From positions 1-59,924 of the forward strand of contig JACQQV010000005.1 in assembly GCA_016206785.1 (NCBI GenBank): a stretch of 59,924 nt of DNA. The letters are read 5' to 3'. The DNA comes from Candidatus Omnitrophota bacterium. GTDB lineage: Bacteria > Omnitrophota > Gorgyraeia > JACQQV01. Positions 1 through 59,766 of this stretch are shown here, piece by piece (position 1 is the stretch's first letter; every line of letters starts with the position of its first letter). The notes beneath the pieces were generated by a model. That model was not told where the DNA came from and ran no database searches. It saw only the letters and a program-made list of their open reading frames with translations. The position numbers were made by a program, and so were the translations under genes.

Positions 1-635
<635 letters not shown>

Positions 636-5497: not shown

Positions 5498-6516
5498 ATT
5501 TCCCGTCCGATGGCGTGACCGACCTTTTTCAACTCTTCCATCAGATCCGAGAACATCGACGGCAGAAGCGACTGAGGCCCATCAGACTTGGCGATCTCCG
5601 GGTTGGTGTGAACTTCGATGATGAGGCCGTCGGCACCGGCCGCGAGCGCCGCCTTGGCCACAGAGGCGACCAGTGACCGCTGACCGGTGGCATGACTCGG
5701 ATCAGCGACCACCGGGAGATGACTGAGCTGTTTGATGACAGGAATTGCATTAATGTCGAGGGTAAACCGGGTTGCACTCTCAAAGGTACGGATCCCTCTT
5801 TCGCAGAGGATGACATGGGGGTTTCCCTCCGAGACGATATACTCGGCAGACATGAGGAGTTCTTCGACGGTCGAACCCATTCCCCGCTTAAGCAGCACCG
5901 GTTTTTTGGAACGACCTACCTCCTTTAACAGATCAAAATTCTGCATGTTGCGTGCGCCGATTTGAAGAATGTCCGCGTATTTTTCAACCAGAGCGATCTG
6001 TCGCGGATCCATGAGTTCCGTCACGATGGGAAGTCCTGTTTTCTCCTTCGCCTCGTGGAGATACTGCAACCCCTCCTCGCCGAGCCCTTGGAAGCTGTAA
6101 GGAGAGGTGCGGGGTTTGAAGGCCCCTCCCCGCAAAATCCTCGCCCCCGCCAGTTTGACCTTCTTCGCCACTTCCAGCATGATTTCACGGCTCTCGACCG
6201 AACAGGGTCCCGCCATCACCACGACTTTTTTTCCACCAATCTTGATCCCTTCGATATCGATCACTGTATCTTGAGGCTTGTACTGTCTTGAAACGAGCTT
6301 GAAAGGGGCTGAGATGCTAACCACCTTTTCGACGCCGGGAAAGGCTTCAAAAGGTTGGATCCGAAGTCTCGCCACCTGATCGATCTTTCCCTTAATGCCA
6401 ATAATCGTCCGCTCCGCCCCTCGGTTGATATCGACGGGGAACCCAGATGTTTTTACCTTTTCCAGCACATGCTGGATCTGTTTTTCTGTCGCTTCAGGTT
6501 TAAAGACGATGATCAT
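5494..6516 (-). CDS. aroF: DAHP synthase, type I-beta with N-terminal regulatory domain
   Basis: [37 protein letters not shown]. Confidence 0.96.
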
Positions 6517-6531
6517 GAAACGCTCCTTTGG

Positions 6532-7614
6532 TTAGAGAATTTTTTTGAGGACCCGGATCAGCCGTTTGTTCTCATCGCTTTTCCCGATGGTGACCCGGAT
6601 AAAGGCGTCTAATTTCCACGCCCCCATGTCGCGCACGATCACTCCAAATTTAAGGAGTTTCTCATAGAGGGGTTTGCCATCCCCGACATTCACCAAAATA
6701 AAATTGGTCTGGCTCGGGATATACCGGAGGCCTAACTCATCGAAGTGACGATAAAGATAATTTTTCCCTTCCCTTACAAGTCTTCGAGTCCGTTCTAAGT
6801 GAGTCCGATCCTCTAGGGCGGCCAGGGCCGCTGCCTGAGCGAGTGAATTCACATTGAACGGTTCCCGTACCCGGTTCAAATAATCGATGATCTCTGGATT
6901 CGAGATGCCATAACCGATCCGAACCCCTGCGAGTCCGTAGGCCTTTGAAAAACTCCGGGTAATGATCACGGAGTGCTTTGAAAGATATTTCCGTGTGTCC
7001 GGATACTCCTTCTCCTGGACAAATTCAAAATAGGCCTCGTCAAAGAAAACGATGACCTCTTTCGGAAGATCCTTCAAAAATGCTTCCACCTCTCCCCGGG
7101 TGACATAGGTTCCCGTTGGATTATCAGGATTGGCGATAAAGACCATCTTGGTTCGGGCACTCACTGCCTCTCTCATCCGGGGAAGATCGTATCGAAAGTT
7201 TTTAAGCGGGACCTCGATGACTTTTGCGCCAGCGACGCGAGAGGCGATCTCATAAATGAGGAAGGTGGGATTCGCCACGACAACTTCTTCCCCTCCCTCC
7301 ACAAACGCGCGTAGCGCAAGAAGAATAATTTCATCCGATCCGTTCCCCGCAATGACCATCGACTCCTTCACACCGAGACGGGAAGCGAGCTTCTTCTTAA
7401 GGAGGTGGGCGTCGGAATCCGGATAGCGGTTGAGGTCTCGAAGTGTTTTCTGAATCGCCTTGAGCGCTTTGGGGGAAGGTCCCAACGCGTTCTCGTTGGA
7501 GGCGAGTTTAATCACCTCTTTTAAGCCCAATTCCCTTTTGAGTTCTTCGATCGGTTTGCCCGGCTTATACGGCGTAATGAGATCGAGAGACTTTCGTGCC
7601 AAAGCAATAGTCAT
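6532..7614 (-). CDS. hisC: Histidinol-phosphate/aromatic aminotransferase
   Basis: YKPGKP, KLASNEN, NPDNPTG, SFSKAYGLAGVRIG. Start reassigned to ATG 7614, an ATGA overlap with pheA. Confidence 0.93.
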   Translation of the reverse strand: MTIALARKSLDLITPYKPGKPIEELKRELGLKEVIKLASNENALGPSPKALKAIQKTLRDLNRYPDSDAHLLKKKLASRLGVKESMVIAGNGSDEIILLALRAFVEGGEEVVVANPTFLIYEIASRVAGAKVIEVPLKNFRYDLPRMREAVSARTKMVFIANPDNPTGTYVTRGEVEAFLKDLPKEVIVFFDEAYFEFVQEKEYPDTRKYLSKHSVIITRSFSKAYGLAGVRIGYGISNPEIIDYLNRVREPFNVNSLAQAAALAALEDRTHLERTRRLVREGKNYLYRHFDELGLRYIPSQTNFILVNVGDGKPLYEKLLKFGVIVRDMGAWKLDAFIRVTIGKSDENKRLIRVLKKIL

Positions 7615-8681
7615 CGGGCGGGATAGGACCCCAAAATCTTCAAAAAGGTGCAATGTTTCTCAAGGGAAGTGATCGCCTGTCTCACCTTCTTCTCTTCCTT
7701 GTGCCCTTTCAGATCCACGAAGAAATAATACTCCCAAGGTTTCTTTCGGGAAGGCCTCGATTCGATCTTGGTGAGATTGATCCCATTTTTCTTGAAGGGA
7801 ACGAGGATATCATGAAGTGCCCCGATTCTATCTTTGATGGAAAACATCACGGAGGTTTTGTCCCGCCCTGTTCGACCCGATCCATTTTTCCCAACGAGAA
7901 GAAAACGGGTCACGTTGCGGTGGCTCTCTCCGATCGATCGGGCGAGGACCCGTAGCCCATACTGACGTGCCGCGTCCTCATGGGCGATGGCGGCGCTGTC
8001 CGCGTGATGGGAGGCCATGGACGCGGCCATACTGGTACTCAACGCCTCCACAGAGTCTCGAGGTTTCAAGTGGTAAAGATTTTCCTCCAGCCAACTGCGG
8101 CACTGGGCGAAAGCCTGCGGATGAAAATAAAGTTTTTTCACCTTGTTCATCGTCTTCGCACGACCAATGAGACAATGGTCGATCTTTAGGAAAACTTCTG
8201 AACAGATCGTCAGTTCCGTATCGGTGAAACGGTCCAGGGTATATCCCACTGTTCCCTCAATAGAATTCTCAATCGGAACCGTCCCGTAATCGGCCCGGTC
8301 CCGCTCCACTTCGGTGAAGACATCCCCAATGGTCATGACGTCGGTGTAAGAGACCTGAGAGCCAAACACCTTTTGAGCCGCCAAATGGGCGTAGCTTAAG
8401 GGGGGGCCTTGGTACGCAATCACGAGCGACTTCTCTAACGCCCTCGCGCCGGAGATCACCTCTCGATAGATCGCCCGTACCGTCTCTGCGGAGAGTGGTC
8501 CTCGACTGAGACGGCTTACCTTTTCATAAATCTCCCGCTCGCGAGTGGGGTCAAAGACATTCCCCCCCTCTCTCGTCTTCAAATGGCCGATGCGGAGGGT
8601 AAGTCCTGCCCGCCGGTTCAGAAGCAACAGGATTTTTTCATCAATCTGATCAATCTCACGACGTAATTTCTTTAGACTCAT
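7611..8681 (-). CDS. pheA: Chorismate mutase/prephenate dehydratase (P-protein)
   Basis: LRREIDQID chorismate mutase domain, PIENS, TRF, ACT motif NLTKIESRP. Start reassigned to ATG 8681. Confidence 0.95.
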   Translation of the reverse strand: MSLKKLRREIDQIDEKILLLLNRRAGLTLRIGHLKTREGGNVFDPTREREIYEKVSRLSRGPLSAETVRAIYREVISGARALEKSLVIAYQGPPLSYAHLAAQKVFGSQVSYTDVMTIGDVFTEVERDRADYGTVPIENSIEGTVGYTLDRFTDTELTICSEVFLKIDHCLIGRAKTMNKVKKLYFHPQAFAQCRSWLEENLYHLKPRDSVEALSTSMAASMASHHADSAAIAHEDAARQYGLRVLARSIGESHRNVTRFLLVGKNGSGRTGRDKTSVMFSIKDRIGALHDILVPFKKNGINLTKIESRPSRKKPWEYYFFVDLKGHKEEKKVRQAITSLEKHCTFLKILGSYPAR

Positions 8682-9264
8682 CAGGTTTCTCCGGTGAGGG
8701 TGAAAGCGCTTCCTGTGGAAGTGCCGCCTCCTCCATTTTCTCACTTTGTTGAACAAACTCTTCGAGGGGCGGAAGTTCCTCGAGACTATTGAGGCCGAAA
8801 TACTCCAAAAACTCCCGACTCGTTCCATAGAGAAGCGGGCGCCCAATGATTTCCTTCCTCCCTGCAATGCGAATCAGCCTTTTTTCGAGAAGAGACTTTA
8901 AAACTCCCTCAACATTCACCCCTCGAATAAATTCAATTTCTTGACGGGTGACCGGTTGTTTATAGGCGACGATCGCAAGGGTCTCAAGCGAGGGTCCAGA
9001 GAGTTTCTCCCCCCGTGTCTTCTTCAGAAACTTCCTGAGCCATGGCGCATAGAGAGGATTTGTGGTCATCTGGTACCCTCCCGCCACCTCTTGAATCACA
9101 AGGCTCCGTTTGGAACCTTCATAGTCTTTCTTTAAGGCTTCGATCAACGAACGGATCTCCGAAGGCTCAAGGTCTTCAAGGACCATGCCGATCTGCTCGG
9201 CCGATACGGGGGATTCGCTCACAAAGAGAAGGGCTTCGATGATACTCTGAGCATGTTCATTCAT
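8656..9264 (-). CDS. scpB: SMC-Scp complex subunit ScpB
   Basis: IEALLF, LETLAIVAYKQPVTR, GRPLLYGT, FGLNSLEELP. Confidence 0.96.
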   Translation of the reverse strand: MNEHAQSIIEALLFVSESPVSAEQIGMVLEDLEPSEIRSLIEALKKDYEGSKRSLVIQEVAGGYQMTTNPLYAPWLRKFLKKTRGEKLSGPSLETLAIVAYKQPVTRQEIEFIRGVNVEGVLKSLLEKRLIRIAGRKEIIGRPLLYGTSREFLEYFGLNSLEELPPLEEFVQQSEKMEEAALPQEALSPSPEKPDESKEITS

Positions 9265-10016
9265 GCTTGGGTCTCGCCTTCCCTCACCCCTGATTCGATT
9301 TTATCTTTGTTGCGTAGAATTTCGACTTCCCCAAAAACTGTTTTTTGCCTCACCAGAATCTCCTGGAGGCGAATGAGCTCCAGGATTGCGAGAAAGGTCG
9401 CCACGACCTCAAGGCGATTTTTGGCCTTCTCGAAGAGTTTTGAAAAATAAAGAACCGGTTCCGTGACCAAAAGATGAAAAATCTCGTGAACTTTTCCTTC
9501 CACTGTAAATTCGTCCTTCACAATTTCATAGAGCATCTTCTTCGGCATCCGCTGGAGAATCTTGGAGAAAGCGGAAAGGAGATCAAAGATGCCGGTTTCA
9601 AAATAGGTCTCCCCTTCTTCATCCACCTCGCTATATTTTTGAAAGGGCCGGGTAAAGATCTCTTTCTGGCTCGCCTCAAGGTGCCCTAAACGGTTGGCTG
9701 CTTCCTTGAATTTCTGGTATTCCAAAAGTCTCCGGACCAGTTCTGCGCGGGGATCCTCCTCTTCTTCCTCCTCAACAAGCTGCTCTTCCGGAGGAAGAAG
9801 CATCCGCGATTTGATCCGCATCAGTTCCGCCGCCATCACGAGAAACTCTCCGGCAATCTCCAGATCGAGAAGCTTCATGACTTCCAGATATTCCAGATAC
9901 TGTCCGGTGATTTTTGCGATCGGGATGTCCGTAATATCCACTTCTTCTTTTTTAATCAGATAAAGGAGAAGATCGAGCGGCCCTTCAAAGAGTTCCAACT
10001 TGACTTTATAAGTCAT
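9261..10016 (-). CDS. scpA: Segregation/condensation protein A
   Basis: FEGPLDLLLYLI, IKSRMLLP, TFLAILEL. Confidence 0.96.
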   Translation of the reverse strand: MTYKVKLELFEGPLDLLLYLIKKEEVDITDIPIAKITGQYLEYLEVMKLLDLEIAGEFLVMAAELMRIKSRMLLPPEEQLVEEEEEEDPRAELVRRLLEYQKFKEAANRLGHLEASQKEIFTRPFQKYSEVDEEGETYFETGIFDLLSAFSKILQRMPKKMLYEIVKDEFTVEGKVHEIFHLLVTEPVLYFSKLFEKAKNRLEVVATFLAILELIRLQEILVRQKTVFGEVEILRNKDKIESGVREGETQA

Positions 10017-11001
10017 GCTTCCACACCAGATGCCGCACTTCCTTCATCGTCTCTGAGGCGATAGCACGCGCCTTCTCTTTCCCCTCCTTGAGGAACTTGG
10101 CAATCTCCCCGCTCTCTTTGAGAAGGGCGGTGCGTTTCTTGCGAATCTCCTCGGTCGCCTCAATTAGTACTTCTGCGAGTTCTGTCTTATTCTCGACGCA
10201 GCCGCGCTTGGCACTTCTACATTCCTCCCAGACGATCGCGGCTCGCTCAGGCGCAAAAACTTTATAATAGTTACAAACATTGCACGTTTCGGGGTGCCCC
10301 GGATCGGTCATTTTGATCCGGAGGGGATCGGTAAACATCTTCTGCGTCGCTTTCCGGATCGCCTCCGGAGATGCTGAAAGAGCGATGGCGTTTTGATAGC
10401 TCTTCGACATCTTCCGCCCATCAATCCCAAGGAGTTTCGAACTTTCGGTTAACAGTTCTTTCGGTTCCGGAAAGGGACTCTCCTTGTAAAGAGATTTGAA
10501 GCGTCTCACGATTTCGCGCGCCAACTCCAGATGGGCCACCTGGTCCTCTCCCACCGGAACCACTTCAGCCTTGTAAAGGAGAATATCTGCAGCCTGAAGC
10601 ACCGGATAGCCCAAAAATCCATAAGTGGTAAGATCCCTTCCCTGAATTTCTCGCAGCTGTTCTTTATAGGTCGGAACGCGCTCCACCCACCCGAGGGGGG
10701 TGATGACCGAAAGGATCATGTAGAGCTCCAAATGTTCTGGGACATCGGACTGACGAAAGATGACGCTTCGGGTAGGATCGATGCCACAGGCGATCCAGTC
10801 GGCCACATTCTCCTTGACCGTCCGTTCAATCTCCGAAGGTGCTTCGTACTCACTCATGAACGCATGGTAGTCCGCGACCATGAAAAAGCAATCGTAGGTC
10901 TCTTGCAGTTTCTTCCAATTTTGAAGCGCCCCCACCCAGTGACCTAGGTGGAGTTCGCCGGTGGGCCGCATCCCGCTTAAAACGCGCTTTCTAGTAGACA
11001 A
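10006..11001 (-). CDS. trpS: Tryptophan--tRNA ligase
   Basis: SGMRPTGELHLGH, YPVLQAADIL, VPVGEDQ, KMSKS. Confidence 0.97.
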   Translation of the reverse strand: MSTRKRVLSGMRPTGELHLGHWVGALQNWKKLQETYDCFFMVADYHAFMSEYEAPSEIERTVKENVADWIACGIDPTRSVIFRQSDVPEHLELYMILSVITPLGWVERVPTYKEQLREIQGRDLTTYGFLGYPVLQAADILLYKAEVVPVGEDQVAHLELAREIVRRFKSLYKESPFPEPKELLTESSKLLGIDGRKMSKSYQNAIALSASPEAIRKATQKMFTDPLRIKMTDPGHPETCNVCNYYKVFAPERAAIVWEECRSAKRGCVENKTELAEVLIEATEEIRKKRTALLKESGEIAKFLKEGKEKARAIASETMKEVRHLVWKHDL

Positions 11002-11023
11002 ACAACACCCCCTTGTGAATTAA

Positions 11024-11144
11024 AAATAACCAAATACCAAATCACAATAACCAAATAAGCTCCAAACACCAATATCCAATAATCAAACCTGGAGTTTGGT
11101 CATTGGTGATTATTTGGTGTTTGGAATTTGGTTATTGATGATTG
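11024..11144. repeat. 7-bp-periodic imperfect palindrome (CAA/TTG type), copy 1
   Basis: CAA at 11031,38,45,52,63,70,77,84; TTG at 11096,103,114,121,128,135,142. Confidence 0.9.
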
Positions 11145-11151
11145 CCACTGA

Positions 11152-13206
11152 TTAGACTTCAAGTTTCCGAGCCACCTTCTCCAATTGATACAGTTCGATG
11201 AAGTCACCCACCTGGTAGTCTTTGAAATTCTCGATGGAGATGCCGCATTCCTGGCCCTCTGCGATCTCTTTCACATCATCTTTAAAGCGCTTCAGTGCCG
11301 CGAGTTTTCCTTCAAAGACGGTCTCTTTATTCCGGATGATGCGGACGACAGGAGTGCCCGCCCGAACCAGTTTCCCCTTGACGGCAAGACATCCTGCAAT
11401 ATTCCCAACTTTTGAAATTTTAAAGACCTGTTTAACCTCTGCACGGCCGAGGAAGGTCTCCTTGGTCGTTGGCTCCAACAACCCTTCCATGGCAAGTTTG
11501 ATGTCAGAGACGATTTCATAAATAATCGTGTACCGCTTGACCTCGACCCCTTCTTCCTTGGCGATCGCCTCGGCCCTTGGGAGCTCGCCCACATGGAAAC
11601 CGATGACGACGGCGTCCGAGGCGGCCGCAAGCATGATATCGGACTCATTGATGTCACCCATGCCACTATGGATAATGGTGAGTTTGACATCTTTAGAGTC
11701 GATCTTGGAAAGTTCTCCCTTAAGGGCTTCCAAGGATCCTTGAACATCGGCCTTCAAAACAAATTTGACCTCCTTCACCTTTCCTTCTTGAATGCGGGTG
11801 TGGAGATCTTCAAGGGTGATGTGACGGGCAGGGCCGACCCTCTCTTCCCGCCGTTTCTCCTCCTGGCGTACCGTTGTAATTTCTCTTGCCCTTCTCTCAT
11901 CTTGGACGACGTAGAAATGCTCCCCCGCCTTGGGAACACCGGAAAGACCTGAGATCTCCACCGGCTGGGAGGGGGGTGCTGTTTCAATCCGATGTCCTTT
12001 ATGATCGACCATCGCCCGCACTTTCCCATAATAGGGACCGCAGACGACGAAATCCCCTATCTTGAGCGAGCCGTTTTGGATGAGGACCGTTGCCACCGGT
12101 CCTTTCCCCTTCGAAAGTTCACTTTCAATGACCGTCCCTTTTGCGAACCTCGTCGGGTCTGCTTTCAGTTCAAGAAGTTCTGCTTCGAGCAATAACATTT
12201 CAAGAAGGTTCGGAATCCCCTCTTGGGTCTTCGCAGAAACAGGAACCATGATCGTCTTCCCTCCCCATTCCTCCGGCACCAGTCCCCGTTCGGTCAGTTG
12301 TTTTTTCACCCGATCCAGATTCGCACTGGGAAGATCACATTTATTGATCGCCACGACAATAGTCACTCCAGCGGCGCGGGCATGGTCAATCGCTTCTTCT
12401 GTCTGGGGCATCACCCCGTCGTCGGCAGCCACCACAAGTACCACCACGTCCGTCACGTTCGCCCCCCGAGCCCGCATGGCCGTGAAGGCCTCATGTCCCG
12501 GCGTATCCAAGAATGTCACATGACCCTTTCCCAAGTCCACCTCATAGGCACCGATATGTTGGGTAATCCCGCCTGCCTCTCCTGCCGCGACTTCACTTTT
12601 GCGGATCGCATCCAAGAGCGAAGTCTTCCCATGATCGACGTGACCCATGAGCGTCACGACCGGTGCCCGCGGTTTTAAATTTTTCGCATCTTTCGTTTCA
12701 TGCTCAAGAATGAGCGCTTCTTCCATCGTGGGAAGCTTCTCGAGCTGGAATCCGAATTCCTTTCCAAGTTCTTTGGCAACTGTTTCATCCAACGCTTGGT
12801 TGATGGTGACAAAGATCTTTCGCTGCATGAGCGATTTGATGAGTTCGCTCGGTTTAACCCCCACTTTGATAGAAAGATCCTTGACCGTGATTGGAAATTG
12901 GACCTGCACCGGTTGAAGGACTTTCGGTCTCTCAGGTTCCTTGACCTCTGGCACTTTCACGACGGTGGGGACGGGGGCTTTGGCGACGGGGGGAGGAGGC
13001 GACACTTTTTGAACCGGTGGAACAGTCGGCTTCACCGGCACCTTCGGCGCTTCCTTGACCTCTTTCTTTTTCAGAAGCTGGACCGCCTCGGGAGGAACGA
13101 CGCTCATGTGACTCTTGACCTCCACTTTCATCCGGTGCAATTTCTCAATGAGTTCTTTGCTGGAGAGTCCGAGTGTCTTTGCCAATTCATGGACGTGAAT
13201 GTTCAT
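11152..13206 (-). CDS. infB: Translation initiation factor IF-2
   Basis: MGHVDHGKTSLLD, EAGGITQHIGAY, DTPGHEAF. Confidence 0.98.
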   Translation of the reverse strand: MNIHVHELAKTLGLSSKELIEKLHRMKVEVKSHMSVVPPEAVQLLKKKEVKEAPKVPVKPTVPPVQKVSPPPPVAKAPVPTVVKVPEVKEPERPKVLQPVQVQFPITVKDLSIKVGVKPSELIKSLMQRKIFVTINQALDETVAKELGKEFGFQLEKLPTMEEALILEHETKDAKNLKPRAPVVTLMGHVDHGKTSLLDAIRKSEVAAGEAGGITQHIGAYEVDLGKGHVTFLDTPGHEAFTAMRARGANVTDVVVLVVAADDGVMPQTEEAIDHARAAGVTIVVAINKCDLPSANLDRVKKQLTERGLVPEEWGGKTIMVPVSAKTQEGIPNLLEMLLLEAELLELKADPTRFAKGTVIESELSKGKGPVATVLIQNGSLKIGDFVVCGPYYGKVRAMVDHKGHRIETAPPSQPVEISGLSGVPKAGEHFYVVQDERRAREITTVRQEEKRREERVGPARHITLEDLHTRIQEGKVKEVKFVLKADVQGSLEALKGELSKIDSKDVKLTIIHSGMGDINESDIMLAAASDAVVIGFHVGELPRAEAIAKEEGVEVKRYTIIYEIVSDIKLAMEGLLEPTTKETFLGRAEVKQVFKISKVGNIAGCLAVKGKLVRAGTPVVRIIRNKETVFEGKLAALKRFKDDVKEIAEGQECGISIENFKDYQVGDFIELYQLEKVARKLEV

Positions 13207-31035: not shown

Positions 31036-31758
31036 TTACATTGTAAATTTCTCGCCAAGGTAAATTTTCCGCGCCTCCGAACTCCTTAACAACTCCTCCG
31101 CGGTTCCAGAAATCAGGATCCGACCGTCCGCCATGAGGTACGAACGGTCGGTGACGGAGAGGGTTTCCCGGACATTGTGGTCTGTGAGAAGTATCCCGAG
31201 GCCTTTTCGTTTCAGTTCATGAATAATCTGCTGGCATTCGGAGACGGCAATCGGATCGACCCCGCTGAAGGGCTCATCCAGAAGAAGGAAAAGAGGATTG
31301 GTGACAAGGGCACGGGTGATTTCAAGCCGCCTCCGTTCCCCGCCGGAAAGCATGTACGCCTTCTGCTTGGCAAGAGGCGTGATATGAAGTTCGGAAAGAA
31401 GTTCACCGAGTCGTCTCTCCCTTGTCTTGGGAGGGATGTGGAGGGTTTCAAGGACCGCCATGATATTCTCCGCTACGGTGAGCCTTTGAAAAATAGACGG
31501 TTCCTGCGAGAGGTATCCGATGCCACACCGGGCCCGACGGTACATCGGTAAAGAGGTGATGTCCTGTTGGTCAAAGATGATCTCTCCGCTGTTCGGCAAC
31601 ACAAGCCCCATGATCATATAAAAGGTGGTCGTTTTCCCTGCCCCGTTCGGTCCCAAAAGGCCGACAATCTCTCCGCGCTTGACCGTAATGGCCACATCCC
31701 TCACCACCGGCCGGCCGTTATACGATTTAACGAGGTGCCTGGTCTCTAATAAATGCAC
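31036..31758 (-). CDS. lptB: LPS export ABC ATPase
   Basis: GPNGAGKTT, LSGGERRRLEI, DEPFSGVDP, TDHNVRETL. Confidence 0.97.
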   Translation of the reverse strand: MHLLETRHLVKSYNGRPVVRDVAITVKRGEIVGLLGPNGAGKTTTFYMIMGLVLPNSGEIIFDQQDITSLPMYRRARCGIGYLSQEPSIFQRLTVAENIMAVLETLHIPPKTRERRLGELLSELHITPLAKQKAYMLSGGERRRLEITRALVTNPLFLLLDEPFSGVDPIAVSECQQIIHELKRKGLGILLTDHNVRETLSVTDRSYLMADGRILISGTAEELLRSSEARKIYLGEKFTM

Positions 31759-32620
31759 GTTTTTCTTTTTCCTCCGGCTTGATCAAAAGTTTTGGTTTGC
31801 CGACAAGGGTCACTTTCCCGAGCAGGGCATTATAGATCGCCTTGTCGCTATAGGAGACATTGTCTCCCCGTGTGATCCGGACATTCCCGGTTGCGATGAG
31901 TTCTTTCACATGATTCGTTTCCGGCTCAAAGGTGATATCCATCCGATCCGCCAGAAGTTCCCCTTCTTTGTCGATCGCTCTGACTTCGTCGTGGAAGACA
32001 GCGATATTGTGGGTATAATCGAGTTCCATCGGGCCTCTGGAGGTAATTTGAATGTCGGGCGCCATATGGACCTTGACCTCTTCCTTGAGGGCCACCTTTT
32101 TCAGATCGGGATAAGCCTCTGCGCCTTTTCCTTCCGTCATTAGAGTTCCTCTTTCGATCGTGAGCCTGTCTTCCGTCGAAAGTTTTTTCGAAGACCCGTT
32201 CCAATCGAGCGAATCCGTTTTGAGAGTGGCCCCATCGCTCGTCTGTGCAAACACATTCTCTTCAAGGTGCGCCTGTGCCGTGTGGCGGTCATAGGTGCCC
32301 CGTTCGGAGGTCACCGTCATCGTCGTCTTCCCTTCCATGGCAAGTTTCGGCTTTTCAAGTCTGGCAAGATCCCCTTCCAATGAAGCCTTCGTCCCCTGAA
32401 CCTCCCACTCCCGTTTTCCCTCCCTGGAGTATCCTGTAAATGAAAAGGTGTGGACCTCTTGTTCTGGAATGGTTTCCTCCGCAAAAGCCATCTGTCGAGT
32501 CGACAATGACAAATGACAAAGCACAAAATTCAAAATAAATCCAAAGCACAAATACCAAATGACAAAACCCCGTTTTGGAATTTGAATTTTGAATTTATTT
32601 TGTGCTTTGAATTTTGTCAT
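31727..32620 (-). CDS. lptC: LptC/LptA-like two-domain LPS transport protein
   Basis: N-terminal hydrophobic anchor; LptC-like LKTDSLDW and LptA-like ATGNVRI..SDKAIY; directly upstream of lptB. Confidence 0.8.
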   Translation of the reverse strand: MTKFKAQNKFKIQIPKRGFVIWYLCFGFILNFVLCHLSLSTRQMAFAEETIPEQEVHTFSFTGYSREGKREWEVQGTKASLEGDLARLEKPKLAMEGKTTMTVTSERGTYDRHTAQAHLEENVFAQTSDGATLKTDSLDWNGSSKKLSTEDRLTIERGTLMTEGKGAEAYPDLKKVALKEEVKVHMAPDIQITSRGPMELDYTHNIAVFHDEVRAIDKEGELLADRMDITFEPETNHVKELIATGNVRITRGDNVSYSDKAIYNALLGKVTLVGKPKLLIKPEEKEKRAFIRDQAPR

Positions 32621-32627
32621 TTGTCAT
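32503..32627. repeat. 7-bp-periodic imperfect palindrome (CAA/TTG type), copy 2, overlapping the lpxL end and lptC start
   Basis: CAA at 32510,17,24,31,42,49,56,63; TTG at 32575,82,89,600,607,614,621. Confidence 0.9.
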
Positions 32628-33524
32628 TACCTTCTCGGGCCTCGTCTTCCACCGACGATGCATCCAGACCCATTGATCTGGAAACCGACGGATATACGAT
32701 TCTGTGACGGACATCCACCGTTCTGTAAGGCGATTCACCGCCTCTTCTTTATCCGATCCATTGGCCGGCCAGAGGGGTTCTTCGACGACGAGCCGATGCC
32801 TTCCATTTCCTTCCCGGATCATGAAACAAGGAATAACAGGTGCCCCTGAGGCAATGGCAAAACGGGCAGGGGCAACCGGGGTGTACGCCTCCTTCCCAAA
32901 AAAAGGAACAAAAATACCGTCGACAGAGTCAATATCCTGATCGGCGAGAATCCCGAGGAATTGATTTTGGTGAAGAATCCGAAGCATCTGTTTCGGAGAC
33001 TCATCGCGGTAAAGGTACTTCAGCCCTTCGCTTTGACGGATTTCGCTCAAGAGACGGTCAAACCGTTCATCGTAGACCTTCCGGATGACAATGATCCCTT
33101 GATATCCCTTGAGGGATAAGGCTCGGGCGAGAAGCTCCCAGTTCCCAAAATGGGCGACCAAGAGGACGCCCCCTTTCCCGCTTTGAAGGACTGTATCCAG
33201 TTTCGAAAGTCCCTCGAAGGAGACCCATCGGTTTAGCGTCTTTTGAGTGATTTTTGGAAAATAGATAAGTTCCGCAACCGTTTTTCCTAAATTTTGGAAG
33301 ACCGATTCCCCGACTTTAAAAATTTCGTGTGGCGTTTTTTCCTTGCCAAAAGCAAGCGTCAGGTGCTGAACGGTCTTCCGTCTTTCTTTCCCAAGAACCC
33401 AGAAAGCACTCCTCCCCAGGAAAGCACCAAGCGCGATGCCCCACGAAGAGGGCAGTTTCCTCAAGAGAAAGCGGATAAAAAGGGTCAGGCGATAAAGGAT
33501 TTTCCTCCGAAGGCGATTTTTCAT
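32595..33524 (-). CDS. Lipid A late acyltransferase (LpxL/HtrB family)
   Basis: AHFGNWE, ADQD, FFG, PDQWVWMHRRWK. Confidence 0.92.
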   Translation of the reverse strand: MKNRLRRKILYRLTLFIRFLLRKLPSSWGIALGAFLGRSAFWVLGKERRKTVQHLTLAFGKEKTPHEIFKVGESVFQNLGKTVAELIYFPKITQKTLNRWVSFEGLSKLDTVLQSGKGGVLLVAHFGNWELLARALSLKGYQGIIVIRKVYDERFDRLLSEIRQSEGLKYLYRDESPKQMLRILHQNQFLGILADQDIDSVDGIFVPFFGKEAYTPVAPARFAIASGAPVIPCFMIREGNGRHRLVVEEPLWPANGSDKEEAVNRLTERWMSVTESYIRRFPDQWVWMHRRWKTRPEKVMTNDKIQSTK

Positions 33525-33547
33525 GAACAATTATCCCCAAACTTATT

Positions 33548-33577
33548 ATTCTACAATATGTTATGCGGGATTGTCAA
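33548..33577 (-). promoter_or_regulatory. Sigma70-type promoter for the lpxL-lpt-tig genes
   Basis: TTGACA (33577-33572), 18-bp spacer, TAGAAT (33553-33548). Confidence 0.65.
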
Positions 33578-33647: not shown

Positions 33648-34757
33648 TTAAAAATCCAGACAAACAGCCGCAGCCTCAGCTAGCGCATCCGCATCATTAT
33701 CTGCTCTTGCGCAAACTCTCCAATTACGAACGTTAGATATCACAGTCTGCTCGACCCAACAATAACCTGAATCATTATCGATATGATACATCCTGCAGTA
33801 ACTAAGAGCGCAAAAATCATGTGGTTGGTAACCGGTGCAGATCACGTTATGAGTAATAGGGACGCCCATGCCTGATATGGTAGAGTTTAACCGAGGAATT
33901 CCCACATTTCCAAAACCATCCATGCGTATCCCTCCCGCAGGCACACTATTAATCCATGGAGCGATGACGAAATTAGAAGTGTTACTATTTCCATCTGTCT
34001 GGTTGCTGTAAATGATCCCCATATCTCCCGCTTGAGTTATTTGGTTCCATTGTAAATTAGCTGTTAAGCCAGAAACAAATCCCATCCAATTCACCCCCGG
34101 GGCCGGATTTCCATTTGTCATATACATGGTAGGGGCTGCTCCATTACTCGCCATCACATGAAACTTAGCGGTTGGGTTAGCAGTCCCAACTCCGACATTG
34201 CCGGTATTATTAACAACAAAATCATCCGCACCGACCGCAGACATACCAATACTGAAGAACCCCTGATCATCAACTCGGCTTAAACGTAAAGTGTTACCGA
34301 TAATTGGCCCGTCAGTCGTGTAAAATTTGTATGCTCGTGTACCTCCTGTTGAACCTTGAAGACGAAGCAAATCTGAAGAACCAAGAATGTCCAACTTCGC
34401 CCCCGGACTCGGCGTCCCGATACCGACATTCCAGGTGGCATCATTCGGATAGAGGTTAGGCGCGCTCAGCGTCCAGTGATTACTCCCCCCTGCCGCACCT
34501 CCCACAATGTCCCAGGTGAAGGTTGCTCCATTACAGAGAAGGAGCTGATTGGTTCCGCTATCATAGTACGTGAGACCGCTGCGGGTGGCATCACAAATGC
34601 CCGGGCTTGTTGTGGGAACGAATCTCACATTCTGATACTCCCCGAAAGGAGCGGGATAATAGGTCGTTAAGGTAATCTGTTCCTGGGCAATGGCAACAAG
34701 GCTACAGGTGAGAAGCAAAAGGAGAAGAAGGAAAAAGATTCTTTTATCGGAGTTCAT
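33648..34757 (-). CDS. Secreted fibre/adhesin-like protein A (TYYPAP N-terminus, GNVGIG repeats, Cys-rich tip)
   Basis: Signal peptide, EQITLTTYYPAPFGEY, three NVG(I/V) repeats, C-terminal Cys-rich domain; RBS AAGGGAGG. Confidence 0.8.
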   Translation of the reverse strand: MNSDKRIFFLLLLLLLTCSLVAIAQEQITLTTYYPAPFGEYQNVRFVPTTSPGICDATRSGLTYYDSGTNQLLLCNGATFTWDIVGGAAGGSNHWTLSAPNLYPNDATWNVGIGTPSPGAKLDILGSSDLLRLQGSTGGTRAYKFYTTDGPIIGNTLRLSRVDDQGFFSIGMSAVGADDFVVNNTGNVGVGTANPTAKFHVMASNGAAPTMYMTNGNPAPGVNWMGFVSGLTANLQWNQITQAGDMGIIYSNQTDGNSNTSNFVIAPWINSVPAGGIRMDGFGNVGIPRLNSTISGMGVPITHNVICTGYQPHDFCALSYCRMYHIDNDSGYCWVEQTVISNVRNWRVCARADNDADALAEAAAVCLDF

Positions 34758-34810: not shown

Positions 34811-35935
34811 TTAGAGACAGATACAATGCTCGCCTGATCCCCACATAGACAAACAACCGCCGATATTAAAATTGCCGCTGGCATCTTCGGAAAAAAGACA
34901 TCCTCTACCGATCTGTGCACAGCGAGTTGCACAAGGCGTACCGTTAGGGGACCAAACATATACTAAAGCATTTCCATAGTCTGTGTTCGCGGCATTGTAA
35001 AATCGAATATTCCACCCTCGATACGCTCCGCTACCCATCATTCCAATATCACCGCCTTGTACCATAATAGAAAGAGGATCAGAAGGTACAGGGGGGTTGC
35101 TAAAACCACTTTGTTGCGCAAATAGCATAGGAGTGGTTAAAGCGCCTCCAATAGTGAGCCTCGCAGACGGTTTTATTCCCCCTATACCAATACCCACATA
35201 TCCATCCCCATAGACCACAAATTGATCGATGCCGGCGTTGTTCACGGCAAGGGCCTTGGTGTTCGCTCTATTCGCAGTACTTAAGATACCGTAATTCCAG
35301 TCGGTGGCATAAGGAGCATTCACGTTAAGTTTCACATTGCCGGGGGAAGAAGTTCCGATCCCGACATTGCCGTTTACACCGGATATTGTTGGACCAGATG
35401 ATCCTAGCTTGATATGCCCTTGAGTAGCATCTGGGATCCCGTAAAGACCCATTGTGTTGGCTATATCAATATCCACCAACTTTGTATCGTTACCGACAAT
35501 TAAAGCATCCCCAGAGAAAGTATCGGATTTAACCAGCGCTGTACCAGCAACATTAAGTTTGTATACAGGATCCGTCGTTCCAATCCCCACATTCGAGCTT
35601 AAAGTTGTGGGATAGAGGTTACTTCCCGACAGTGTCCAGAGACTACTCCCGCCCCCTCCACCCCCCCCTCCCAAAACAGCCCAGGTGCTACTTCCCCCGT
35701 TACAATAAAGGATTTCGTTGGTGGTAGAGTTGTAGAACATAAGACCCGTTTGGGTCGCCGTACAAGACGTTCCTGAGGTTGCTCCTGTGGTTGGGACAAG
35801 TCTTACATTCTGATACTCCCCGAAAGGAGCGGGATAATAGGTCGTTAAGGTAATCTGTTCCTGGGCAATGGCGACAAGGCTACAGGTGAGAAGCAAAAGG
35901 AGAAGAAGGAAAAAGATTCTTTTATCGGAGTTCAT
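34811..35935 (-). CDS. Secreted fibre/adhesin-like protein B, paralogue of A
   Basis: Same first 45 aa as A; NVGIGT repeats; a different Cys-rich tip. Confidence 0.8.
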   Translation of the reverse strand: MNSDKRIFFLLLLLLLTCSLVAIAQEQITLTTYYPAPFGEYQNVRLVPTTGATSGTSCTATQTGLMFYNSTTNEILYCNGGSSTWAVLGGGGGGGGSSLWTLSGSNLYPTTLSSNVGIGTTDPVYKLNVAGTALVKSDTFSGDALIVGNDTKLVDIDIANTMGLYGIPDATQGHIKLGSSGPTISGVNGNVGIGTSSPGNVKLNVNAPYATDWNYGILSTANRANTKALAVNNAGIDQFVVYGDGYVGIGIGGIKPSARLTIGGALTTPMLFAQQSGFSNPPVPSDPLSIMVQGGDIGMMGSGAYRGWNIRFYNAANTDYGNALVYVWSPNGTPCATRCAQIGRGCLFSEDASGNFNIGGCLSMWGSGEHCICL

Positions 35936-36007: not shown

Positions 36008-36056
36008 AAAAAGGTTGTGCAAAGGGTGAATTGGCACTTTGCACAACCGTTTTTTT
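36008..36056. terminator. Bidirectional terminator-like hairpin after kdsC
   Basis: GGTTGTGCAAAG (36013-24) / CTTTGCACAACC (36037-48), flanked by A and T runs. Confidence 0.75.
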
Positions 36057-36588
36057 ACCGGTGATTGGTGTACTCGGCGACGAGGGCGTCGTACTTCTCC
36101 TGACTCTTCAAAATGAGATCTACCACCTCCCGGACCGCCCCCCGCCCCCCTTTGCGCTGGGTGACATAGCCGCTTCGCGTACGCACCTCCTCGACGGCGT
36201 TCGGGACACTGACCGGGAGCCCTGCCTCCACAAGGATCGGGAGATCCAAAAGGTCATCCCCGATAAAGCAGACCTCCTCGTCGGTCACACGAAACTTTCG
36301 CTTCACCTTTTGGTAGACTTTCCATTTGTCCAATGCATTTTGGTAGACCTTGGACACATGGCTGTCGCGCGCCCGTCGCTGGACGACCGGTGATTTTTTG
36401 GCGGTGATGATGACCGTCTTGATACCGGCCTTTGAAAGAAGATAGATCCCGAAACCATCTTGAACGTCAAAACATTTGAGTTCATCCCCTGCATCGCCGT
36501 AGATGATCCGTCCGTCGGTTAAGACCCCGTCGACATCGAGGATGAGTAGCTTCACCTTTTGGGCGCGTTCTCTGATAGCTGAGTCCAT
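36055..36588 (-). CDS. kdsC: KDO 8-phosphate phosphatase
   Basis: DVDGVLTDG, FDVQDG, IGDDLLD, GGRGAVRE. Confidence 0.96.
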   Translation of the reverse strand: MDSAIRERAQKVKLLILDVDGVLTDGRIIYGDAGDELKCFDVQDGFGIYLLSKAGIKTVIITAKKSPVVQRRARDSHVSKVYQNALDKWKVYQKVKRKFRVTDEEVCFIGDDLLDLPILVEAGLPVSVPNAVEEVRTRSGYVTQRKGGRGAVREVVDLILKSQEKYDALVAEYTNHR

Positions 36589-36596
36589 TATGGGAT

Positions 36597-36671
36597 TTCG
36601 TATCTCGTATCTCGTGAAGTGTATCTCGTATTTTGTTCGACGAACGACGCTTCACGCTTCACGAACGACGA
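36597..36671. repeat. 7-bp-periodic palindrome (CGT/ACG type), copy 2
   Basis: Units start at 36598,605,612,619,626; ACG at 36640,47,54,61,68; homologous to the reverse complement of 16231-16289. Confidence 0.88.
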
Positions 36672-36672
36672 T

Positions 36673-37998
36673 TTAACTTTCTCGGGTGACACGGAGCACC
36701 TCCTCGATGGTCGTAACACCGGCCCTCGCCTTGTCCAAACCGTCATCCCGAAGGGTGCGCATCCCTCCTCGTAGCGCGGCCGCATTGATCGCGTCCGTCG
36801 CACTCTTGGCAACAATGAGATTCCGGATCTCATCGTTCATTTCCATCAGTTCAAAGATCCCGATCCGGCCCCGGTAGCCGATCTGACGACAGGTCGCACA
36901 CCCTTTCCCCCGGTAAAAAGGAGCACTTTGTGGAACCTCTTTTTTACTTTCCACTTCTTTCTCTGGCTCCATGATATAGAATTCTCCTTTCCGTTCCGGG
37001 CTCCATTTCCCCCGTTTCTCCGAAGGCGTGGGCGGGGCAAATTCCTGAAGGACCGCCTCGGGAGGGGCGTAGTCTATTTTACAACCGTTGCAAATCTTTC
37101 GAACGAGCCGTTGGGCCAAGACGCCGATGAGCGATGAAGAAATAAGGAAAGGTTCGATGCCCATATCGACGAGGCGGGTCACCGCCCCTGCGGCATCATT
37201 GGTATGAAGGGTGCTAAAAACAAGATGACCGGTGAGAGAAGCGCGGATGGCGATCTCCGCCGTTTCAAGATCACGAATTTCCCCGACGAGAATAATGTTG
37301 GGATCCTGCCGCAGGACGGAGCGAAGGCCATTGGCAAAGGTGAGTCCTACTTTTGGGTTGACCTGCCCTTGATTCACCCCTTTCAACTGATATTCCACCG
37401 GATCCTCCAGGGTAATGATATTCAGTTGCGGAGAATTAAGAATGGAGAGGACCGCATAAAGGGTGGAGGTCTTGCCACTATTCGTAGGACCTGTCACAAA
37501 GATCATCCCATTCGGCCGTTTGATGAGTGTCTCAAATTTCGATTGAACAGCCTCCGAAAGGCCCAGTTCGTTCAGGGTCCGGAAGGTGACCTCCTTATCC
37601 AGGATGCGGACGGCAATCTTTTCCCCCAAGATCGTCGGGAAAGTAGAAACACGGACATCCACATCCCGCGTCCCGGCCCGGAGACCGAACCGCCCATCCT
37701 GAGGGGTGTGGGTCCTGCCGACATCTGGATCAAGTTCTGCCATCACCTTGATGCGGGGAATAATCGGAAGGGCGTCCCTTCGAAGGGTGAGCATGTCATA
37801 GAGAATGCCGTCGATCCGATAACGGACACGGAGGGAGTCTTTGGTCGGTTCGATATGGACGTCGCTTGCCCTTTCCTCGATCGCCTGCGCCAGGATCAAA
37901 TCGACCACCTGAATCACAAGAGGATTGTCCAGACTGGCCCCCTTGGCACCACTCGTAAAAACGAGTTCATCGTATTTCTCTTTAAGTGTCTTGATCAT
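36673..37998 (-). CDS. GspE/PilB-family secretion ATPase lacking the long N-terminal domain
   Basis: ASDVHIEP, PQDGR, GPTNSGKT, LEDPVE, LRQDP..VGEIRD, TGHLVFSTLHTND, CxxC...CxxC. Confidence 0.93.
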   Translation of the reverse strand: MIKTLKEKYDELVFTSGAKGASLDNPLVIQVVDLILAQAIEERASDVHIEPTKDSLRVRYRIDGILYDMLTLRRDALPIIPRIKVMAELDPDVGRTHTPQDGRFGLRAGTRDVDVRVSTFPTILGEKIAVRILDKEVTFRTLNELGLSEAVQSKFETLIKRPNGMIFVTGPTNSGKTSTLYAVLSILNSPQLNIITLEDPVEYQLKGVNQGQVNPKVGLTFANGLRSVLRQDPNIILVGEIRDLETAEIAIRASLTGHLVFSTLHTNDAAGAVTRLVDMGIEPFLISSSLIGVLAQRLVRKICNGCKIDYAPPEAVLQEFAPPTPSEKRGKWSPERKGEFYIMEPEKEVESKKEVPQSAPFYRGKGCATCRQIGYRGRIGIFELMEMNDEIRNLIVAKSATDAINAAALRGGMRTLRDDGLDKARAGVTTIEEVLRVTRES

Positions 37999-43260: not shown

Positions 43261-44076
43261 TCAAGATTCTTTTTTGAGCACCACTTCGATGATGCCGAAA
43301 GGGACCCTTGCCTTCATATAAAGAGGGGTTCTTTTTTGATCGAGGCTGAACCAGATCCACATCCTCCCTTTTCGAATAAAAACGCCGTGGAATTGGGCAA
43401 GGGGTTCTACCAGAAGCGCGGGGACCTCTTTTTTGCCGAAGAGTTTCAGGAGCCCCGCTTTGAGTACCTTCACTTCCAGACGCCAGTTCTTTTCATCTGC
43501 ATTCACGTCGATGAAAACGGATTGGCCGGTCTCAAGGGGGAGGGTGCGGAAATAGAAGAGGGTGCTTAAGGAATCCTGAACGCTGGGAGGAATTTCCATC
43601 TCTTTGGTGCTGTTGTTTAAGAAAGAACGGTAAGTCGCCTTGCGGCTGGTTGGGTCATAGACCATCTCCTCATGGGCACGGTAGCGGCCTTCACGCTGGC
43701 GTTTCTCAAACCGATAAGGAGTAAGGGTCTCTACATCGACGTAACTATGGATTTCGTCTTCAACAGGATAAAAGGTGGAGAGAAACCGGTTCGAGCGGGC
43801 AGAGACGACGAGGTGATAGACCTGATGGTCTTGGTAAGTGGTGACCTCTCTCACCTCCAGCCGCCCGCTTCCGACATTAAGACCCATCCAATTGACATCG
43901 TAATCCAAGGTTTCCCCCACACGGAACTTTTTTTCTGGGACTTGCATCTCTTGGGTCAAGGCTTTTGTCTGCCGGAGTTTCCCCAAATCCTCCCTGTGGG
44001 TAAAATAGGTGAGATTCGAGCATCCTGAAAAAGTAAAAATTAAAAAGGAAAAAGTAAAAAGTTTAACGGAGGTCAT
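43261..44076 (-). CDS. DUF3108-like lipoprotein
   Basis: Lipobox FSGC; GETLDYDVNWMG, QDSLS, WIWFSLD..TP. Confidence 0.75.
   Translation of the reverse strand: MTSVKLFTFSFLIFTFSGCSNLTYFTHREDLGKLRQTKALTQEMQVPEKKFRVGETLDYDVNWMGLNVGSGRLEVREVTTYQDHQVYHLVVSARSNRFLSTFYPVEDEIHSYVDVETLTPYRFEKRQREGRYRAHEEMVYDPTSRKATYRSFLNNSTKEMEIPPSVQDSLSTLFYFRTLPLETGQSVFIDVNADEKNWRLEVKVLKAGLLKLFGKKEVPALLVEPLAQFHGVFIRKGRMWIWFSLDQKRTPLYMKARVPFGIIEVVLKKES
44027..44061. repeat. Five-unit 7-bp tandem array inside the signal peptide
   Basis: GAAAAAG TAAAAAT TAAAAAG GAAAAAG TAAAAAG. Confidence 0.75.
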
Positions 44077-59628: not shown

Positions 59629-59757
59629 AAAGTTCCAATAACCAAATTACAAACACCAAACAAATTCCAAGTTTTCAATAACCAAACCCATGTTTGATTA
59701 TTGGAATTTGGTTCATTGGTGATTGTTTGGTTATTGAGATTTGGTGATTGGTGATTT
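59629..59757. repeat. 7-bp-periodic imperfect palindrome (CAA/TTG type), copy 3
   Basis: CAA at 59636,43,50,57,68,76,83; TTG at 59694,701,708,716,727,734,741,748. Confidence 0.9.
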
Positions 59758-59766
59758 CGTAATCTC

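Follow-up and report, generated by a model that had tools for sequence, protein, structure and literature searches.

A heptamer palindrome probably supplies the export signal or membrane anchor of an LptC-family protein in an Omnitrophota bacterium

We analysed a stretch of 59,924 nucleotides from a Candidatus Omnitrophota bacterium (contig JACQQV010000005.1 of GenBank assembly GCA_016206785.1; hereafter the window), in which an imperfect palindrome lies across the junction between an LpxL-family gene (lpxL) and an LptC-LptA fusion gene (lptC). The genes at this locus, namely these two, lptB and the trigger factor gene (tig), are all on the minus strand. The features of the locus are as follows.

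31036..31758, minus strand: lptB, encoding the lipopolysaccharide (LPS) export ATPase (TIGR04406, 348.8 bits against a cutoff of 240)
31727..32620, minus strand: LptC-LptA fusion gene, long form, 297 aa (TIGR04409, PF06835 and PF03968)
32480..32488, minus strand: codons of A45-F46-A47, a candidate signal peptidase I site of the AxA type; AFA followed by EE is conserved in homologues
32489..32491, minus strand: rival lptC start, M44 (MAFAEET), at which the database gene call P0001 (254 aa) begins
32503..32627, both strands: imperfect palindrome of degenerate heptamers (inverted repeat, fold and period-7 signal)
32595..33530, minus strand: LpxL-family lipid A acyltransferase gene (PF03279, E 4e-53)
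32618..32620, minus strand: proposed start codon of lptC, an ATG provided by the second terminal heptamer (ATGACAA), with a Shine-Dalgarno (SD) sequence and an open frame
32630..32636, minus strand: SD-like GAGAAGG, ending 9 nt before ATG 32620; it lies in the coding end of lpxL, immediately outside the repeat
33548..33577, minus strand: promoter-like site TTGACA-18-TAGAAT, matching 11/12 positions, a consensus match only, upstream of lpxL

The LptC domain scores above the cutoffs of both family models (TIGR04409, 79.6 bits against 38; PF06835, 59.4 bits against 21), and lptB overlaps the end of the gene, as the operon context of LptC would have it. The second jellyroll of the open reading frame (ORF) matches PF03968 over residues 198-278; as an OstA/LptA-like domain (residues 189-278) it reaches 34.8 bits, under the LptA cutoff of 71.7. 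Matches of the upstream ORF to the NCBIfam LpxL models are all below cutoffs. The predicted promoter is likely the start of an lpxL-lptC-lptB transcript, and LptC, by analogy with E. coli, would be indispensable.

The arms of the inverted repeat (32496-32559 and 32574-32637) are 64 nt each and 77% complementary, with 14-nt spacing, and the 15-nt termini at 32506-32520 (ATGACAAATGACAAA) and 32613-32627 are perfect reverse complements. The minus-strand RNA of the element folds at -48.3 kcal/mol, compared with a mean of -24.8 (sd 3.4) for shuffled sequences (z -6.96), and none of 200 shuffles equalled it. Tandem Repeats Finder reports period-7 rows at 32505-32520, 32573-32596 and 32613-32628, covering both ends and the T arm, together with rows of period 13-14. 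Seven is also the top lag for self-matching in each arm (0.61 in the A-rich arm, 0.66 in the T-rich arm), at a level that none of 5000 shuffles matched. The heptamers are degenerate and form no clean array, and the order of two of them is swapped between the arms. The element as a whole is a sharp AT-rich island (A 0.38, T 0.33) within a window of 52% G+C. Rfam has no family at the element, blastn against phage and plasmid collections gave no match, and the ESM Atlas gave no usable match.

Whichever strand is read, the A-rich arm of the element is 5′ and the T-rich arm 3′, and all six frames translate into a K/N/Q-rich and then F/L/I/C-rich peptide, with uninterrupted reading from an ATG in only two of the six. 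One of these is lptC. On the plus strand, the mirror frame 32513-32707 opens MTKHKIQNKSKAQIP... and continues with a hydrophobic stretch; this 64-aa ORF, antisense to lpxL, illustrates the strand symmetry of the element and has no sign of being a gene.

On the minus strand, the element is shared by two reading frames. After ...RPEKV the lpxL ORF enters the repeat, where it reads MTNDKIQSTK and stops (the ORF ends ...RPEKVMTNDKIQSTK); its last 10 codons and its stop (32595-32597) are repeat DNA, in a frame different from that of lptC, and the two genes overlap by 26 nt. The lptC ORF starts MTKFKAQNKFKIQIPKRGFVIWYLCFGFILNFVLCHLSL and, from 32620, reads MTKFKAQNKFKIQIPKRG in the A-rich arm and FVIWYLCFGFILNFVLCHLSL in the T-rich arm, followed by the non-repeat STRQMAFA and then EETIPEQEV. 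Residues 1-17, from the A-rich arm, make up a basic n-region with five lysines and one arginine; residues 19-39, from the T-rich arm, are an uncharged hydrophobic core of 21 residues; residues 40-47 (STRQMAFA) are encoded by non-repeat DNA, with A45-F46-A47 preceding E48; and the jellyroll spans residues ~54-279. A first-pass annotation of this DNA had described a heptamer palindrome at these positions whose arms are alike in composition in all frames, had read the A-rich arm as an ATG with a basic n-region and the T-rich arm as a hydrophobic segment, and had assigned the end of lpxL, MTNDKIQSTK, to the same DNA. All of this agrees with the arms, the periodicity, the fold and the translations given above.

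Two start codons compete for lptC. The SD duplex of ATG 32620 is -6.2 kcal/mol, whereas the ATG of M44 scores +0.4 and has no SD. Scored with a generic anti-SD motif, duplexes of -6 kcal/mol or lower precede 43% of 49 first starts in the window, as against 19% of 779 internal ATGs; the organism uses SD sequences. The best KD15 hydrophobicity value of the long form is 2.24 (residues 20-34), compared with -0.13 for the M44 form, which means that there is no hydrophobic segment without residues 1-43. In all 19 other full-length homologues of the protein set this value is at least 1.83, and it is at least 1.8 in 78 of 80 LptC loci from related genomes, the two exceptions (L020 and L079) being truncated. 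Since TIGR04409 aligns only from model position 29 (of 180), at residue 44, a start at M44 would leave the N-terminal part of the family model otherwise unaccounted for.

The long form has, by a rule-based reading, the marks of a Sec-type signal, i.e. a basic n-region, an h-region and small residues at -3 and -1. The AlphaFold model (mean pLDDT 84) places a helix at residues 19-41, with low to moderate confidence, ahead of a confident jellyroll at 54-279. In most aligned homologues the hydrophobic part is closed by a small-x-small motif and then E or Q (AFA before EE, SYA before QE), which makes a cleavable signal as likely as a membrane anchor. We conclude that the segment is a predicted Sec-type export signal or N-terminal anchor, both fitting equally.

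The nearest loci in the genome collection are L001 and L004, with LptC identities of 61-63% (61-67% for the window and L001 as a distant pair). L001 has the same element at the same junction, directly after lpxL ...RRWKTRPE, with a fold of -55 kcal/mol (z -9.2). Its LptC frame is open across the element from an ATG at hairpin position +8 (MTNDKIQMIKQIQISNDQFQNKTRVLLFEICYLLFICHL...) and, relative to the heptamers, uses the other one of the two staggered terminal ATGs. P0005, the deposited LptC of L001, begins downstream of the element and has no signal. At the same place in L004 there are arrays of AAGACNN and NNGTCTT with an ATG between them, the T-rich array encoding FCFRFMGVFGLLSLVFCLAFA; the fold of these arms is weak (z -1.4; 22 of 200 shuffles fold as well). 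In L015 a TTTGTCA array forms the hydrophobic core of LptC, preceded by MFK only, and there is no A arm. P0002 (76% identity) has the N-terminus MTKFKAQNKFKIQI.... Gain and loss of the element could not be put in order from a tree of six close LptC proteins. In L040, from a single metagenome-assembled genome, two long ORFs each span genes that are normally separate: 1026-2996 joins LptC and trigger-factor domains in one frame of 657 aa, and 7839-11225 joins adenylosuccinate synthetase and H+-pyrophosphatase in one frame of 1129 aa. Fusion, loss of a stop codon or an artefact of assembly may account for them.

The element peptide recurs on other proteins. A profile built from nine element peptides, searched against proteins of 89-2000 aa, matched 41 proteins; by eye, the motif lies in the first ~70 residues of 40 of them, the exception being P0033. 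The consensus is approximately MTK[FS]K[IA]QNKSKIQ..N.KTKVLSFVICAL.LFCHLCFGICHLSFA followed by QE, and an ordered peptide, MTK.K.QNK.KIQ...FVI..L.F..ILNFVLCHL, is common to unrelated proteins, with 59-70% identity over ~40 residues. The 41 proteins fall into the following groups.

Known envelope families, 23 proteins: LptC (three), LptD-type (three), SurA-type (two), Skp, BamD/YbgF-type TPR (five), PilQ secretin, PF01497 binding proteins (three), a staphylococcal-type nuclease (SNase), cupredoxin/COX2-type (three) and a UshA-like protein
Glycoside hydrolases (GH), 9 proteins: GH39 (six) and GH2-type (three)
Other families, 2 proteins: peptidase-MA-like and TPR/SH3
AmmeMemoRadiSam fusions: 2 proteins
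No family: 5 proteins

No ribosomal, tRNA-synthetase or central-metabolic family is among the 41 matches, and no Pfam or NCBIfam model covers the element peptide. The AmmeMemoRadiSam family is normally without a signal; in P0038 and P0056, both B+A fusions, an element-type N-terminus stands directly before the ...AG.FYP start of the Memo-like domain, and these proteins would be either exported in their organisms or over-extended gene calls. At the DNA level, palindromy was seen in the window, L001, L061 and L070, in L032 with an insertion, and in L015 as the T arm only; fold z-scores are -4.3 for L070 and -2.8 for L061, and the UshA-like genes of L061 and L032 begin within such a hairpin. The insertion in L032 (16360-16425) is GC-rich and lies within the A arm, and a second, GC-richer insertion of this kind occurs within the n-region of P0057, P0061, P0062 and P0066 (e.g. 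...QNKSSATGGSAFGGKIKISN...). The predicted n-region tolerates nested insertions. When the 43-residue element peptide was compared with 1.84 billion representatives, six matches were obtained, all at residue 1; five are 37-80 aa long (four of them 37-48 aa) and only P0026 is longer (185 aa). With six matches, mostly short, this single-peptide search is too thin to be used alone. A word-indexed search limited to residues 1-43 returned only P0022.

We also scanned 1.17 Mb (the 80 loci plus the window) for hairpins by complementarity (40-nt arms, at least 29 matches, loop of at most 45 nt). A composition-only detector of A-arm/T-arm pairs was dropped as too permissive in AT-rich loci. The scan found 42 hairpins, most of them tandem heptamers whose unit varies from site to site, and many between co-directional genes. 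The 19 A/T-type hairpins give 114 strand-frames, of which only five combine an early start (within 25 nt of the beginning) with a frame that is open as far as the end of the hairpin; these five include the LptC frames of the window and of L001, as well as the mirror frame of the window element. The downstream gene could be identified for 17 of the 19, by Pfam for 16 and through the homologue P0057 for L070; ten minus-strand shadow ORFs without a Pfam match were left out of the count. All three hairpins with an exported downstream gene (LptC of the window, LptC of L001 and the UshA-like gene of L070) have a 5′-terminal start from which they are read through, as against none of the 14 with a cytoplasmic one (tig, patatin-like, KdsA, KdsB twice, KdsC twice, PfkB twice, ClpP, HMGL-like, GT9, TrpS and AroC), where every gene begins after the hairpin. 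Because the LptC genes of the window and L001 are orthologous, these are two independent read-through events, not three. Hairpins of other composition lie before LptC in L018, L040 and L080; they are not read through, and the genes have signals of their own.

The window itself contains three further features of this kind.

11017..11145, strand not assigned: second heptamer hairpin, of a sister type (ACCAAAT-like), between infB and trpS; untranslated into trpS
44028..44062, minus strand: five AAAAAGT units, a T-rich arm only with no hairpin, in ORF 43261-44076, which encodes a DUF3108 protein
59635..59760, strand not assigned: third heptamer hairpin, of the same ACCAAAT-like sister type, between a truncated upstream ORF and aroC; untranslated into aroC

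Read on the minus strand, the AAAAAGT array encodes the hydrophobic core of a lipoprotein-type signal (MTSVKLFTFSFLIFTFSGC; LFTFSFLIFTFSGC). Separately, TCGTATC and ACGCTTC heptamer arrays with partial dyad symmetry (36598-36663) lie within the 84 nt that separate a KdsC-like ORF (36055-36588) from the ORF upstream of it (36673-37998). Intergenic heptamer hairpins are also found at L007:20431-20555, L009:3621-3701 and 6498-6579, L018:7370-8102, L080:8160-8276 and L045:3336-3451. Hairpin units in Omnitrophota loci differ by site (AGTAGNA, ACCCTAT, CGCAGAT, CCGGTTA, TAGGGTC and others), which points to a process acting across the phylum and producing paired heptamer arrays, rather than to one sequence family.

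Copies related to the window element itself lie at L001:4783-4822 and L080:5450-5468, and the 60-kb window contains only one copy of this subtype. Untranslated related copies stand between lptB and tig in L001 and before kdsC in L057. The lptB-tig junction, where L001 has its copy, measures no more than 27 nt in the window (lptB reaches down to position 31036, tig up to 31008), and no hairpin was found in it; the two genomes are distant. The element shares its terminal inverted repeats, its long stem-loop and its many related copies at unrelated sites with miniature inverted-repeat transposable elements (MITEs). Palindromes of the repetitive extragenic palindrome/bacterial interspersed mosaic element (REP/BIME) type are short, contain GC and lie untranslated downstream of genes; the copy at lptC does not fit this type, since it overlaps two coding frames and is AT-rich. 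The sister hairpins at 11017 and 59635, by contrast, are intergenic and untranslated.

Taken together, the repeat is probably translated from 32620 and supplies the export signal or anchor of LptC, as one of a class of dispersed heptamer hairpins in Omnitrophota. The first-pass annotation had likewise favoured the upstream start over MAFAEET, and the SD values and the confinement of the hydrophobic segment to the long form speak for that choice. Its further suggestion of a portable cassette that has been domesticated gains support from the 41 peptide matches, the retention in L001 and the untranslated copies between cytoplasmic genes, and the LptC N-termini of relatives, with a hydrophobic segment in 78 of 80 loci and the same element in L001, fit the same picture. 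The contrast between exported and cytoplasmic genes over the 1.17 Mb of loci adds independent evidence at the DNA level.

The following mechanism would account for these observations. The lpxL frame would run 10 codons into the A-rich arm and stop there, so that the element is translated in two frames. Translation of lptC would begin at the ATG of the second terminal heptamer and proceed through the lysine-rich n-region, the 21-residue core and the non-repeat STRQMAFA into the conserved mature sequence EETIPEQEV..., giving the periplasmic LPS-bridge protein the Sec-type export signal or N-terminal anchor that it needs; a signal would be cleaved after AFA. In any frame, the A-rich arm would yield lysine codons and the T-rich arm codons for Phe, Leu, Ile, Val and Cys, and because of this similarity the repeat would read as n-region and h-region on either strand; two ATGs 7 nt apart would open two of the three frames. 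Copies may have spread by transposition or by recombination between copies, and one landing in frame before the gene of an exported protein could take the place of the native signal and so leave the latter open to decay. The ATG of lptC is followed 23 nt downstream by the stop of lpxL, and the hairpin buries the SD and the ATG; for this reason translational coupling is to be expected, with a ribosome that terminates on lpxL holding the stem open for initiation on lptC.

Several observations weigh against this interpretation. Both gene calls, P0001 in the window and P0005 (PGAP-type) in L001, begin after the element, and the start at 32620 is a prediction from sequence. ATG 32620 and part of its SD are within a -48 kcal/mol stem, where initiation would be hindered unless coupling or co-transcriptional loading opens it. 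In L001 no SD is obvious by eye, and the hydrophobic cores of L001 and P0002 contain E/D residues. Ordinary signal peptides are found in P0003, the closest protein relative (82% identity), and in P0006, which means that the LptC family can do without the element; heptamer-periodic signal-coding DNA is clear in only 3 of 80 LptC loci (L001, L015 and L060), and an element-encoded signal is therefore a derived, minority state. The search profile is itself signal-peptide-like, which biases its weaker matches towards exported proteins, though the n-region motif is distinctive. Reverse-complement compatibility of the n- and h-regions, judged from protein alone, was found in 4 of 41 proteins and 0 of 12 controls (at most 2 of 200 shuffles), a comparison with no power. 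With regard to mobility, the flanks show no target-site duplication (GGTA and TGTC in the window, ACGA and TTCG in L001), and no transposase can be linked to the element, for which the whole genome would be needed; on both counts we call the element MITE-like without classing it as a MITE.

Some of these observations would be explained if lptC truly began at M44, leaving the palindrome untranslated for this gene and its frame open by chance. The database calls would then be right, the burial of ATG 32620 in a strong stem would be of no consequence, and the element would resemble the two other window hairpins, which are purely intergenic. However, such a gene would lack both an SD and the hydrophobic segment that nearly all orthologous loci encode, although a periplasmic jellyroll needs export, and the early-start-and-open state, rare among strand-frames, nonetheless occurs in the LptC frame of both the window and L001. 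We consider this reading very unlikely. A role of the hairpin as nucleic acid is harder to set aside, and it is compatible with translation of the element: REP-like mRNA stabilisation or processing, lpxL-lptC coupling or a common 5′ structure of envelope mRNAs could be what the hairpin is mainly kept for, signal coding being a tolerated by-product. Strong folds are retained in the window, L001, L070 and L061; hairpins of quite different units stand between many co-directional genes; the lpxL stop sits in the A arm close to the lptC ATG; and MITE and REP stem-loops are reported (PMC2229807) to act on the mRNA of neighbouring genes. Against this, export-signal coding persists without a hairpin, as seen from the T-rich array of L015, which has no A arm, and the weak fold of L004. 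Nor is there a terminator-like U tract 3′ of the element stem, where a scan for terminator-like structures lists only a small GTCGAC stem starting at the element edge, or an Rfam family. That the hairpin is kept mainly for such a role seems rather doubtful to us.

It is also conceivable that there is no mobile cassette, and that heptamer slippage and local inverted duplication built such elements in place at weakly constrained DNA, the likeness between copies being convergent composition. Heptamer units do vary between sites; lone T-rich arrays occur in signal-coding DNA (window 44028-44062 and L015); L004 has its own AAGACNN/NNGTCTT arms at the same lpxL-lptC junction; and heptanucleotides are, according to PMC4679880 (citing Mrazek 2007), the commonest long simple repeats in many bacteria and are attributed to polymerase slippage. 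However, composition alone does not give an ordered peptide common to unrelated proteins, a related copy stands between lptB and tig in L001 with none found at the corresponding 27-nt junction of the window, and the 15-nt inverted termini are perfect. On balance, an origin in place is unlikely.

Returning to the export module that a translated repeat would provide, we tentatively propose a broader scenario, possible if still short of probable: strand-symmetric heptamer hairpins would be a ready-made module that has repeatedly replaced native signals across a large share of the envelope proteome, the machineries for LPS transport and outer-membrane assembly among them, giving many envelope mRNAs one common 5′ hairpin as a possible regulatory or coupling handle.

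Two features of the window lie apart from these subjects. Positions 1-635 (minus strand) match a bacterial 16S rRNA gene (Rfam RF00177, 553.9 bits), of which the window edge leaves only the first ~629 positions. Upstream of lpxL, adjacent paralogous ORFs at 33648-34757 and 34811-35935 (both minus strand; 369 and 374 aa) have identical N-terminal ~45 residues (MNSDKRIFFLLLLLLLTCSLVAIAQEQITLTTYYPAPFGEYQNVR) and strong GGGAGG ribosome-binding sites; the 369-aa paralogue has no Pfam match.

Signal peptides are usually viewed as gene-specific and freely drifting, whereas here one DNA element appears to give a start codon and an export signal to many unrelated envelope proteins, including several that model bacteria cannot do without. 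If true, selfish or slippage-born DNA would in this clear case have been drawn into core cell-envelope biogenesis, and the common hairpin around the start codon would connect mRNA structure, translational coupling and secretion in a way that can be tested. There is a practical side as well. The public calls for LptC of the window (31727-32620, P0001) and of L001 (2809-3732, P0005) describe proteins without an export signal. Misplaced starts are likely a systematic mis-annotation wherever the element heads a gene, and such starts, called downstream of the repeat, would distort secretome and envelope predictions for Omnitrophota.

In-frame translated palindromic repeats and heptamer repeats beside start codons are already known. 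A repeat-encoded signal common to conserved envelope proteins, and heptamer palindromes in Omnitrophota, are apparently new: our literature searches turned up neither heptamer palindromes nor signal peptides encoded by repeats in this phylum, and the preprint 10.64898/2026.06.07.730766 makes no mention of heptamers, palindromes, hairpins or repeats. The closest parallels are the MITE ORF fusions of YPAL/RU-2 of Yersinia and of ERIC, which PMC2229807 (reviewing Delihas 2007) describes as stem-loops of ~100-170 bp with inverted termini, mostly intergenic, whose translated frame is hydrophobic-rich and whose in-frame fusion gives predicted transmembrane segments or a partial signal peptide (locus YPO1552). 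The Omnitrophota element is likewise a small stem-loop with inverted termini that is hydrophobic when translated. However, the YPAL/ERIC fusions described there concern single hypothetical proteins and part of a signal, whereas here the repeat would provide the start codon, the n-region and the whole core; it recurs on conserved envelope proteins (LptC, LptD, SurA, Skp, BamD and secretin; 41 proteins in all) and is built of heptamers; and, unlike YPAL/ERIC as described there, it shows neither TA termini nor a target duplication.

Rickettsia palindromic elements (RPEs) are inserted in frame within protein genes, in 19 cases (Ogata 2000, as related in PMC2229807), and resemble the present element in being palindromic repeats translated as part of conserved functional proteins. 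In that account, however, RPEs are not described as N-terminal modules of start codon plus export signal, and they have no heptamer substructure. TAACTGA heptamer repeats of Beggiatoaceae, Cyanobacteria and Bacteroidetes, as described in PMC4679880, are concentrated between genes and directly upstream of start codons, often overlap the upstream stop and are occasionally translated at the start or end of a protein. The Omnitrophota repeats are similar in being tandem heptamers between genes, at a start codon and overlapping the upstream stop. Unlike them, the TAACTGA repeats are, in the same account, copies of a single fixed heptamer in direct orientation, apart from one reported indirect repeat, and are proposed regulator-binding sites; they are not described there as hairpin-paired or linked to export signals.

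The protein itself resembles the LptC of the Lpt bridge (TIGR04409/PF06835) in its domain scores, in having lptB next downstream and in its N-terminal hydrophobic segment before the jellyroll. LptC of E. coli has an uncleaved N-terminal anchor. Unlike known LptC, the window protein is fused to an LptA-like second jellyroll (PF03968), and AxA followed by EE comes after the core, so that its cleavage is possible. Finally, the element is like PARCELs in being coding DNA with dyad symmetry that has apparently spread within and between genomes and is enriched in membrane-targeted proteins; PARCELs, however, occur as tandem arrays of 25-residue domains within ORFs whose function is unknown, whereas the Omnitrophota element would be a single N-terminal signal.

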